A stretch of 64,000 nt of DNA, from the NCBI GenBank assembly GCA_014905635.1, contig CM026547.1, forward strand, positions 496,001 to 560,000, in the 5' to 3' direction. This DNA comes from Scenedesmus sp. PABB004. Taxonomy: Eukaryota. Each line of letters opens with the position of its first letter. Within the stretch, counting starts at the first letter, position 1. Both the position numbers and the translations under genes were made by a program. A model generated the notes under the pieces. That model saw nothing but the letters and a program-made list of their open reading frames with translations, searched no databases and was not told the DNA's origin. Below, piece after piece: positions 31,399-40,902 of the stretch.

Positions 31399-34300
31399 AT
31401 GGCGAGCGCGGCGAGTTCGCTGAAGCAGCTGCAGCACCTCTCGATCATCAGCAAGGTCACTGCTGGTGAGCGGCGGCCGCGGCCGGGCGGGAGGAGGGCG
31501 CTGGGCGCCGCGCCGCAGCAGCGCCGCCGCTCTCGCCGCCGGGCTCGGGGCTCGCGGCGGCGTCCCCCCGCGCCCGCGCCCGGCGCCCGGGGCGCTCCCG
31601 CATCGCCGGCGGCGCGCTGGGCCGGAGACCGCGGGCGCACGGCGGGCCTGAGGCCGCGCCGCGCCGCCGCCGCCGCAGAGCTCGAGGCGGCGACCGGCAT
31701 CGCGGAGCGCACGCTCGCAGAGTTCATCGTCGACGTGGCGCAGGGCGCCAAGAATGTGGACGGCTTCAAGAAGGCGCGGCGCCGGCGGGCGCGGGCGGGC
31801 GCCGCCAGCAGCGGCGCGGCCAGTCGCGGCAGCCGCCCGCCGCCGCCGAGCACGCGGCGCCGCTGCCCGCGCGCGCAGGACCTGCTCGAGGCGGGCGGCG
31901 AGCTGCCGGACGCGGTGGTGGAGCGGCTGTGGAACATCATACAGGCGCTCAACCCGGCCAAGGCGGGCGCGGGCGGCGGCGGCGGCGCCGCCGGCGGCGG
32001 CGACTTCAAGCCCCACCCCAAGCCCCGCCCCGACGCGGCCATCCCGGGGCTGGCGCTGCAGAACACGCGGGAGTACGCCAAGCAGCTGGACCAGGCGCTC
32101 ATAGACGAGGCGCGCGCCGCGGCGGCGGCCAAGGCGCGCGCGCGCCGCCGGCCGGCCGGCGCCGGCGCAGGCGGCGGCGCCGCCGCCGGGCGAGCGCGAG
32201 CGGCGGCGCGAGCGCAGCAGGAGCCGGGACCGCGATCGGCGGCGCAGGTGGGGGCGGCGACACGGCGGCGGCGGCGCGCCGGTCGCGGCGCAGCGGCCGC
32301 GGCGGCAGCGGCGAGGCGGCGCGCTCACCCCGTGCGCCCCCGCGCAGGTCGCGCAGCCGCAGCAGGGGCCGCGACCGCGACCGCGACGGCCGGCGGGACA
32401 GCCGCGGCGGGCGGTCGCGCTCGGGCGAGCGCCGCCGCAGGTGGGCTGCCGCGCGCGCCCGCGCCCGCGGCGACGACGGCAGCGCCCGCGCCCGCGCCGC
32501 TCACGCGCCCCCGCCCCCCCCCGCCCCCGCCGCGCAGGGGTTCCCGCAGCCGCAGCCCCAAGCGCGCGCGCCCCGGCGACGCCGGCGCGGCGGCGGCCGC
32601 GCGCGGCGGGGCCTTCCCCGGCCCGCCCGGCGGCGGCGGCGGCGGCCCCGGCGGCCCCAGCGGCCCGCCGGGCGGGGGCGGCGAGCCCGTGCTGGGCGGC
32701 GTGTATCGCGGCAAGGTGTCCGGCATCATGGAGTTTGGCTGCTTCGTGGAGCTGGTCGGCTTCGGGCACCTCGGCAAGCGGGTGCGCCCGCGCCGCTGCC
32801 TGCTGCGCCCGCCGCCCGCCGCGCCCGTGTCGGCGGGCGCTCCCTCCCGGCCCCTCCCGCCGCTGGTGGGGTCCGTGCCCCTCCGCTTTGCCCCCCACAC
32901 CCACGCACGCACGCCCTCACCCCCCCCCCCCTCTGCCCCCCCCCCCTCTGCCCCCCCCCACACACACACACCACACCCCCACACCCACGCAGGCGGAGGG
33001 CCTGGTGCACGTGAGCAACATCAGCTCCGCGCGCCTCACCTCGGCTAAGGACGCGGTGCAGCGCGGGCAGGACGTGTGGGTCAAGGTCGTGAGCGTGAGC
33101 GGCGGCAAGCTGCTGCTCTCCATACGCGACGTCGACCAGGCGACCGGGCGGGACCTGCTGGACCTGGAGAAGATCCGCGCCGCCGCGGGCGGCGGCCCCG
33201 CGGCGGCGCCGGCGGGGGCCCGGGCGGCGGCGGCGGCGGCGTGAGCGGGCTGGCGGGCATCAGCGGCATCAAGGTCAACCCCAAGGACTTTGAGGAGACC
33301 ACCAAGCGGTGCGTTTGTTGTGTTGTGTGTGTGTGGGGGGGTGTGTTCTGGCCTTGCAGGAGGCGCGGGCGTTGTGGCGCGCTCGGCGCGCGCCGACCCC
33401 TCTCCCTCTCCCTCCCTCCCTCTCCCTCTCCCTCTCTCTGCACCCCTCTCTCTCTCTCTCTCTGCCCCCTCTCTCCCTCCTCTCTCCCTCTCCCTCTCAC
33501 GCACACCCACCCACACACACACACACACCCAACACACACGCACACCCTCCACCCCGTCCACCCCCCAGGCGGAGCAAGAAGCTGACCGAGTATGAGAAGT
33601 GGGAGTACAAGCAGCTCATGATGAGCGGCGTGCTCGACGTGCGCGACTACCCGCTCTTCGACGACGAGGACGGGCAGGGCATCCTCGCGGGCGTCGAGGA
33701 GGTGCGGCGGGGGACGGGGCGGGGCGGCACGGGGCGGCGCGCGGACGGCGCGCGAGGGGCGAGGCGCTGCGCGGCGCGGCGGCGGCCGGGGCGCGCTCCC
33801 GCCGCCGCCGCCGCCTCGGCCCTCGAACGCCCCGCGCCCCCTCTTCAAACCCCTACTCAGCCTCAACCCCTGAACCCTTAAACCCTTGAGCCTCGCCCCC
33901 TGCTGAACCCCGCCGCGCCCCCGCCGCCGCCGCGCGCACCGCGTGCGCCTATGCCCGCCCCTAGGAGGACCGCGAGGAGTTTGAGATCGACCTCAACGAC
34001 GACGAGCCCGAGTTCCTCAAGGGCCACAGCAGCCGCAGCGGCATCGAGATGAGCCCGATCAAGATCGTCAAAAACCCAGAGGGCAGCATGCAGCGCGCCG
34101 CGATGACCGCGGTGCGCGGCGCGGGCTGCGGCCGCGGCGGGGGCTGGCAGTGGCGACATGCGGGAGGGATGAGGCTGGGGAGGCGAGGTGGGAGGGGAGG
34201 GGAGGAGGCGGCAGAGGAGGAGGGGCGCTCACGCGCCGCCGCCCCCGCCGCGCGCGTCGCGCGCCGCGCAGAGCACGCTGGCCAAGGAGCGGCGCGAGCT

Positions 34301-40300: not shown

Positions 40301-40902
40301 CCACACACACACACACCGCCCCGCACCCCCCCACACCGCCCCGCACCCCCCCCCCTCCCCCCTCTCACGCGCAGGCAAGAACTACGTGCGCGTGTGCAAG
40401 GCCGTCACGAGCGGCTTCTTCTTCCACGCCGCGCGCAAGGACCCGCAGGAGGGCTACAAGACGGTCGTGGAGGGGCAGCCCGTCTACATCCACCCCTCCT
40501 CCAGCGTCTTCCAGCAGCAGCCCGACTGGGTGCTCTACCACGAGCTCGTGCTCACGACAAAGGAGTACATGCGCGAGGTGCGGCGGCTGGGCGGGGTGTT
40601 TTTGGGTGGGCGGGTGGGTGTGGGCGCGGCGCGGCGCGGCGCGGCGCGCGGGGGCGCCAGGCGCCAGGCGCGCACGCCCGCGCCCGCGCTCAACCGCACG
40701 CCGCCGCCGCCGCTGCTGCCCCGCCGCGGCGCGGCAGGTGCTGTCGATCGACCCGCAGTGGCTCGTCGAGCTCGCGCCGCGCTTCTTCAAGCCCGCCGAC
40801 GCGCACCGCCTGAGCCGGCGCAAGCGCTACGAGCGCATCGAGCCGCTCTACGACAAGTACAACGACCCCGTCGCGTGGCGCCTCTCCAAGCGCAAGGGCT
40901 GA
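31399..40902 (+). CDS. PRP22: Pre-mRNA splicing DEAH-box helicase PRP22/DHX8 (~28 exons)
   Basis: LSIISKV N-terminus, S1 domain ([22 protein letters not shown]), [56 protein letters not shown]-terminal [21 protein letters not shown]. Confidence 0.97.
36775..36962. repeat. Intronic GGCTG/GGCTGC minisatellite
   Basis: Tandem GGCTG(G/C) units in a PRP22 intron. Confidence 0.9.
37489..37578 (+). ncRNA. Pre-miRNA-like hairpin in a PRP22 intron
   Basis: Arms 37500-37531 and 37539-37570 pair over 32 positions with 3 mismatches and 3 U:G wobbles around a 7-nt loop; extra basal pairing CCGCCTG/CGGGCGG. Confidence 0.5.
39185..39333. repeat. Intronic (GT)n/(GGGT)n microsatellite
   Basis: Directly visible; one of many GT/CA/CT tracts in PRP22 introns. 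Confidence 0.9.

Follow-up and report, generated by a model that had tools for sequence, protein, structure and literature searches.

Frequent GC-AG introns in conserved genes of the GC-rich green alga Scenedesmus sp. PABB004

Introns that start with GC rather than GT are rare in plants (about 1.2% GC-AG over 121 genomes; PMC6310983). Far higher shares are described in GC-rich algae. In the haptophyte Emiliania huxleyi, GC donors make up 56% of 241 curated junctions and the overall GC/GT ratio is about 60/40; nine GC junctions were confirmed by reverse-transcription PCR (RT-PCR), and the authors blame the 65% genome G+C and report that ab initio models fail (PMC4028052). Among the pelagophytes, Aureococcus anophagefferens has 14–17% GC-AG introns and Pelagomonas calceolata about 14%, with 0.32% in the low-GC Aureoumbra (bioRxiv 10.1101/2024.10.30.620910). 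Many non-canonical introns in E. huxleyi and Aureococcus are also pointed out in a survey of 263 species (PMC11347168). Here, we describe the introns of PRP22/DHX8 and of four other conserved genes (METTL3, MRD1, FCF1 and DCTD) in a 64,000-nucleotide stretch of the chlorophycean alga Scenedesmus sp. PABB004 (GenBank contig CM026547.1, positions 496,001 to 560,000 of the forward strand; hereafter the window, in whose own numbering all positions are given). In the first four genes 15 of the 46 homology-placed introns are GC-AG (33%; 95% interval 20–48%), and DCTD adds one more. The excess of GC donors, which an earlier note on this DNA had placed far above normal, is confirmed as real at the level of protein homology, the share of 33% standing against the approximately 1.2% given for plants (PMC6310983).

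The likeness to E. huxleyi is one of kind: both are very GC-rich algae with tens of percent of GC donors and AG acceptors, in which gene models trained on GT-AG introns go wrong. They belong to different supergroups, however, and the share is 56–60% in the haptophyte and about 33% here, despite genome G+C contents of 65% and 78.5%, respectively; moreover, the E. huxleyi GC junctions were verified by RT-PCR (PMC4028052), whereas those of PABB004 are known from protein homology. In the pelagophytes, too, a raised GC-AG share is ascribed to high genome G+C, and the gradient among them resembles that between the window and its relatives (see below), but their genomes are intron-poor (fewer than one intron per gene) and reach a lower share, whereas here a single gene contains at least 26 introns. 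With the U2-type (major-spliceosome) GC-AG introns of plants and animals, the introns of the window share the GC...AG borders, the lack of U12 signals and donor flanks that are stronger than those of GT introns. A stronger flanking donor consensus is the classic compensation in U2-type GC-AG introns. The difference is that such introns are about 25 times more common here than on average in plants (PMC6310983), and that the consensus is AG/GYGCG and not AG/GYAAGT (the slash marks the exon–intron border).

If the GC-rich algal group is delimited by at least 10% GC donors and a genome G+C well above 60%, PABB004 falls inside it: 15/46 donors are GC (in one window), the G+C content is 74–85% in all 2 kb bins of the window, which is rich in short introns, and the genome is listed with 39.8 Mb, 78.5% G+C and 7,092 genes (table in PMC12571836). 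No report of GC-AG shares in Scenedesmus, PABB004 or other green algae was found in a search that left out subscription journals, and a green alga rich in GC-AG introns might appear in the per-species tables of the plant survey (PMC6310983). Should the 33% hold genome-wide, no higher use of GC donors would be on record for the green lineage, as far as the literature searched shows, and PABB004 would join haptophytes and pelagophytes as the third independent lineage whose most conserved intron dinucleotide has been rewritten by extreme G+C. Base composition and splicing code could also be compared within one order, as the Sphaeropleales range from 56% to 78.5% G+C (PMC12571836). The GC-AG shift is real without being unprecedented, and it counts mostly for correct gene annotation: genes will be broken or overlooked by programs that give GC donors too little weight.

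The borders were set independently of splice-site rules, by homology-only scans for the four genes and by residue continuity with a PDB structure for DCTD. Between neighbouring high-scoring segment pairs (HSPs), obtained by tblastn chaining with gap filling and with explicit anchors for two short exons, every frame-keeping donor/acceptor pair was scanned, with any dinucleotides and without a splice-site prior, and the joined peptide was scored by BLOSUM62 against a reference. For PRP22 the references were the closest relatives, P0004 and P0006. Equivalent borders in METTL3 were judged at the protein level. For MRD1 the junctions counted are those on which at least six of eight references agree, and the calls backed by only one or two of the eight were dropped; these lay mainly in the low-complexity N-terminal half and were mainly doubtful GC calls of 25–100 nucleotides (nt). 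The share was computed on PRP22 (9/26), METTL3 (3/11), MRD1 (2/6) and FCF1 (1/3), DCTD being kept out of the proportion because its intron had been chosen for looking like a GC donor. At borders placed in this way, all 16 GC introns start with GC and end with AG, and an AG acceptor, nearly always CAG, is found in 47/47 introns (the 46 of the four genes and that of DCTD).

The conserved core of PRP22 (33569-40902), built from 21 exons, encodes 832 residues with no stop. Its identity is 94.1% to P0004, in an alignment of 832 columns that has no gap, and 93.3% to P0006; the next relatives are Chlamydomonas euryale (83%) and Dunaliella (81%). P0004 comes from a 4.3 kb contig with an open reading frame of 1234 amino acids and is therefore probably a transcript, while P0006 is a transcriptome entry with the accession prefix of Flechtneria rotunda, Scenedesmaceae (PMC7382218). 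Both are colinear with spliced PRP22 over all junctions, which lends indirect support to removal of the introns at these borders. The gene and its GC donors are as follows (scores in BLOSUM62 units).

31399..40902, plus strand: PRP22/DHX8 gene; 9 GC-AG and 17 GT-AG introns placed, one further junction and one frameshift
31774..31878, plus strand: GC-AG intron of 105 nt, in frame and open; spliced 199 against P0004, read-through 154, best GT-AG 151
34850..35054, plus strand: GC-AG intron just before the GETGSGKT motif; GC-AG 95 (top class), GT-AG 77; ungapped in 16/16 orthologues
35708..35949, plus strand: phase 2 GC-AG intron upstream of the DEAH box; GC-AG 94, GT-AG 74; ungapped in 16/16
36469..36720, plus strand: GC-AG intron of 252 nt, in frame and open; GC-AG 114, GT-AG 87
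37280..37685, plus strand: GC-AG intron; GC-AG 125, GT-AG 107; ungapped in 16/16
38488..38723, plus strand: GC-AG intron; GC-AG 225, GT-AG 208, with P0004 and P0006 alike
38832..39097, plus strand: GC-AG intron; GC-AG 111 (top class), no GT-AG candidate in range
39544..39769, plus strand: GC-AG intron; GC-AG 127 (top class), no GT-AG candidate in range
39893..40069, plus strand: GC-AG intron, less certain; GC-AG 124, GT-AG from 39899 116, border without an AG acceptor 128
32110..32170, plus strand: two ag/GCGCG sites (32110 and 32134) before a frame change; an intron of 61 or 37 nt, or an assembly indel

At eight of these sites (31774, 34850, 35708, 36469, 37280, 38488, 38832 and 39544) the top-scoring class of borders contains GC-AG and no GT-AG pair, and the best GT-AG alternative is 17–48 units lower or absent. 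In a MAFFT alignment with 16 orthologues, none has a gap at any of the eight GC junctions of the core. At 39893, the GT-AG alternative six bases downstream, at 39899, would add two residues. The same scan puts GT-AG in the top class at 31466, 32782, 33309, 33702, 34112, 35160, 35416, 36020, 36767, 37812, 38183, 40155 and 40578, and one to five units below the top at 34404 and 39164; the two GT donors of the RS domain, 32248 and 32441, were placed by reading of the frames alone. The earlier note had named 11 positions in this gene (the nine GC donors placed here, plus 32110 and 32134), and all of them read ag/GCGCG. Its estimate of about 10 GC introns in 27 comes close to the 9/26 placed introns, the candidate at 32110/32134 being impossible to place: the frame shifts between 32101 and about 32170, in a low-complexity stretch that is not conserved in the relative. 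A second frame change, of one base, lies in a GGC/G run at 33199-33224, where the best 'intron' would be 26 nt long with non-canonical ends; the assembly has probably gained or lost a single base of the G/C run.

METTL3 (24847-28106) corresponds to a 579-residue public protein listed at NCBI for the same strain (P0123, Scenedesmus sp. PABB004), which threads onto it residue for residue with 100% identity. P0123 can be reproduced only with 12 introns, three GC-AG and nine GT-AG. One of the nine, a 41-nt GT-AG intron annotated at 25433-25473, seems to be spurious, since the alignment of relatives continues in the unspliced frame up to about 25487, and was dropped, which leaves 3/11; this reading of the frames suggests that the annotated intron patches another frame problem. 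The three GC-AG introns, and those of the remaining genes, are listed below.

26249..26374, plus strand: METTL3 GC-AG intron; required for P0123; 97–102 against 83–88 for GT-AG with P0124 and P0218
26511..26646, plus strand: METTL3 GC-AG intron; required for P0123; ungapped in 14/14 relatives
26755..26987, plus strand: METTL3 GC-AG intron; required for P0123; ungapped in 14/14 relatives
15190..15298, minus strand: MRD1 GC-AG intron; 8/8 references, GC-AG top or at most 4 units off, GT-AG 18–22 units lower
14859..14971, minus strand: MRD1 GC-AG intron; 8/8 references, GT-AG 55–65 units lower
19600..19762, plus strand: FCF1 GC-AG intron; 8/8 references, no GT-AG candidate in range
57536..57669, minus strand: DCTD GC-AG intron; flanking exons correspond to residues 10-33 and 34-78 of human dCMP deaminase 2w4l_A

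The best GT-AG pair at 26249 would delete a conserved Cys-Arg pair. In MRD1 at least six of the eight references place GT donors at 17134, 16930, 16024 and 15528 (minus strand), and in FCF1 the GT donors are 19889 and 20216, two N-terminal introns of the latter gene lying outside the count. An ag/GCGCG also occurs on the minus strand of MRD1 at 16029, five nucleotides upstream of the GT donor at 16024; as 8/8 references prefer the GT donor, this junction was counted as GT. Position 16029 is a natural case of an unused, perhaps alternative, GC donor. The DCTD splice leaves zero residues missing or added against 2w4l_A. The GC donors that the earlier note had reported outside PRP22 hold in four genes: three of 11–12 introns in METTL3 (26249, 26511 and 26755), where it had proposed three of about 11; 19600 in FCF1; 15298 and 14971 (minus strand, two of the six placed junctions) in MRD1; and 57669 in DCTD, by residue continuity. 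In the SR gene, to which it had attributed some as well, no GC donor was found.

The GC donors have a distinctive anatomy. AG at positions −2/−1 accompanies 16/16 GC donors, compared with 16/31 GT donors (Fisher p = 0.0006), in keeping with the note's view that exonic AG compensates for GC. Likewise, GCG occupies positions +3 to +5 in 16/16 GC donors and in 17/31 GT donors (p = 0.0016). The GC donors are thus confined to the best local context, AG/GCGCG, and nearer to the consensus than the GT donors, which is the compensation seen in U2-type GC-AG introns. Neither a U12-type donor ([AG]TATCC) nor a TCCTTRAY branch box was found in any of the 16 GC introns. The heptamer AGGCGCG occurs in PRP22 and METTL3 12 times at donors, three times inside exons (two of these being 32110 and 32134) and four times inside introns; the donor count is more than chance, as the background of 0.55 per kb predicts about 0.02 at 37 intron starts. 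Length, G+C content and predicted fold stability do not separate GC from GT introns, and no clear difference points to a GC-specific hairpin compensation (mean fold z of −1.20 for GC and −0.80 for GT introns).

Taken together, the sequence evidence makes it probable that these are ordinary U2-type introns in which the donor has changed from GT to GC at +2, in an alga of about 78% G+C. Strong G+C pressure, through mutation bias or biased gene conversion, would fix the T-to-C change at +2, and would do so only where all of the other pairs with standard U1 are present (A at −2, G at −1, G at +1, a G wobble at +3 and G at +5), so that the donor site would remain above the recognition threshold. 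GT donors would keep the +2 pair and hence tolerate weaker flanks. U2-type GC-AG introns would then be behaving as they do elsewhere, though on a larger scale, and new machinery would be unnecessary. In textbook U1/5′ splice-site pairing, strict flanks are what the standard U1 5′ end demands once the +2 pair is lost. Such a dependence on strict context would also explain why homology does not favour the ag/GCGCG at 16029, five bases from the good GT donor at 16024. A change of the spliceosome, in the sense of the relaxed or altered 5′ splice-site recognition proposed in the earlier note, is not required for the GC donors, and the note's interpretation is supported in part, for the excess of GC donors and their exonic AG.

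Comparison with relatives is consistent with a change at +2. Three intron positions of PRP22 that agree in codon and phase show GC in the window and GT in a relative: cag/GCGCGC against cag/GTGGGG in metagenome locus L015 at 34850, cag/GCGCGC against cag/GTGCGT in L036 at 36469, and aag/GCGCGC against aag/GTGCGC in L006 at 38488, where T/C at +2 is the sole difference. At 39544 both the window and L006 have cag/GCGCGCG; as L006 is an independent metagenome contig, GC donors in the clade are seen outside this single assembly as well. Five further shared intron positions have GT in window and relative alike. Among 35 short relative fragments at the end of the ITVMQ exon (36469), three read on as V (GTN), where the window has A (GCG), and 32 are intronless there. 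The metagenome set comprises 80 loci, most with an intronless PRP22 (a single HSP), 14 of which were used for junctions and six for orthologous positions. With the same script, the three closest intron-rich relatives (L005, L006 and L015; 51–62% G+C) gave 3 GC in 26 introns, and 11 loci of other lineages gave 0 GC in 24, with three further junctions not placed. The GC-AG share follows a gradient, from 15/46 in the window through 3/26 in the closest relatives to 0/24 in other lineages, and the counts in relatives and other lineages show that the junction method does not manufacture GC calls.

Several points weigh against this explanation by G+C pressure on ordinary introns. The evidence is protein homology, drawn from a single 64 kb window and four or five of its conserved housekeeping genes, and the contrast with the closest relatives is borderline (15/46 against 3/26, p = 0.054). 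G+C alone does not set the share, since E. huxleyi, with 65% G+C, lies above this genome, with 78%, and Aureococcus, with about 70%, lies below it. The U1 pairing argument is drawn from textbook rules, and indel errors seem to be present in the assembly within both PRP22 and METTL3.

We may wonder whether the spliceosome itself has adapted, a changed U1 5′ end, U6, U1C or Luc7 recognizing GC as well as GT. The size of the share, about 25 times the plant average (PMC6310983), would fit such a change, as would the invariance of C at +4 in the GC donors (16/16) and its frequency in GT donors. A C at +4 mismatches standard U1. The branch motif CTRAY is also rare (4/47 introns, in the last 60–80 nt), a hint that signals may be generally shifted. 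On the other hand, GT donors are still the majority, and the stricter flanks of the GC donors are the opposite of what would be predicted if U1 paired well with C at +2; we consider an adapted spliceosome unlikely. The same low standing is given to a more specific form, a co-adapted 5′ splice-site reader, in which the base of U1 (or of a second U1 variant) opposite +2 would pair with both C and U and the partner of +4 with C. If this improbable case were true, AG/GCGCG would be a second, fully recognized donor class rather than a tolerated defect, and the rarity of CTRAY would belong to the same re-tuned splicing code. An Rfam scan of the 64 kb window at gathering thresholds returned zero families and no small nuclear RNA gene.

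That homology misleads, some GC introns being retained in-frame insertions or introns with other non-canonical borders, is very unlikely. It is true that 31774-31878, 36469-36720 and 26249-26374 have lengths that are multiples of three, the first two being open in frame, and that the border with the best fit to the relatives at 39893 lacks an AG acceptor. Yet the length of 12/16 GC introns is not divisible by three, so that these cannot be retained coding sequence, insertions would sit within invariant helicase motifs that are ungapped in 16/16 orthologues, and read-through at 31774 scores 45 units lower than splicing. Very unlikely, too, is an assembly or base-call artefact, with a systematic error of the consensus putting C at +2 of donors that are really GT: the frame changes near 33199-33224 (PRP22) and 25433-25473 (METTL3) do reveal assembly errors, but these resemble indels in G/C runs and not T-to-C substitutions, 31 GT donors of the same assembly are intact, GTGCG contexts included, the independent contig L006 has cag/GCGCGCG at the orthologous position, and GC is confined to sites with exonic AG, a limit that no error process would respect.

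The expectation that gene finders would mis-annotate such genes is only partly upheld. In METTL3, precisely the three GC-AG introns are part of the public model, P0123; the doubtful 41-nt intron of the same model, the lack of a 100%-identical PRP22 or MRD1 protein and a table with only 7,092 genes point the other way. Searches with the exons found no 100%-identical public protein for PRP22 (31399-40902; best 94%) or MRD1 (14500-18700; best 73%), unlike METTL3, and the public annotation may lack these two genes or contain them in broken form.

A codon-usage scan trained on PRP22 only found coding segments that end exactly at ag/GCGCG at three other places in the window. One of them lies in the cupin gene to which the earlier note had also assigned a GC donor, which coding potential suggests here as a candidate.

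42338: candidate GC donor, cupin; coding potential only
50195, minus strand: candidate GC donor, exonuclease; coding potential only
24176, minus strand: candidate GC donor, RRM protein; coding potential only

Some features of the introns themselves are worth recording. Over the 43 introns of PRP22, METTL3 and MRD1, a polarity is seen: the first 60 nt are rich in G, with a mean GC skew of +0.25, and the last 60 nt are rich in C, with one of −0.39. Predicted folds join the 5′ third of these introns to the 3′ third (median of 24 pairs), with a mean fold z of −0.93 against dinucleotide shuffles and an extreme of −6.7 at 33309-33568. The most enriched branch-like, A-containing 5-mer is CTCAC, found in 11/47 introns where 2.4 are expected from intron bodies. 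Inverted telomere-like motifs of the plant type, GGGTTTAGGG close to the intron start and CCCTAAACCC close to the intron end, occur in the introns at 34850-35054, 35708-35949, 37812-38058 and 38488-38723. As to an introner or transposon origin, TTTAGGG is present in only 3/43 introns and CCCTAAA in only 4/43. In the 394-nt intron at 36767-37160, a tandem array of an approximately 11-nt unit (GGCTGGGCTGC-like) extends over 36770-36950 and fills much of the intron, and long (CA)n, (CT)n and poly-C runs are found in others.

Elsewhere in the window, positions 1-6300 (minus strand) hold a large multi-exon gene with many repeats of about 100 residues that carry a T-N-T-G-N-V-like motif; it continues past the window start. 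Finally, in the region 14500-28100, METTL3 and MRD1 have their best EukProt relatives in gene11796 and gene11800 of one annotated genome, four numbers apart, which suggests that gene order is conserved with this relative.

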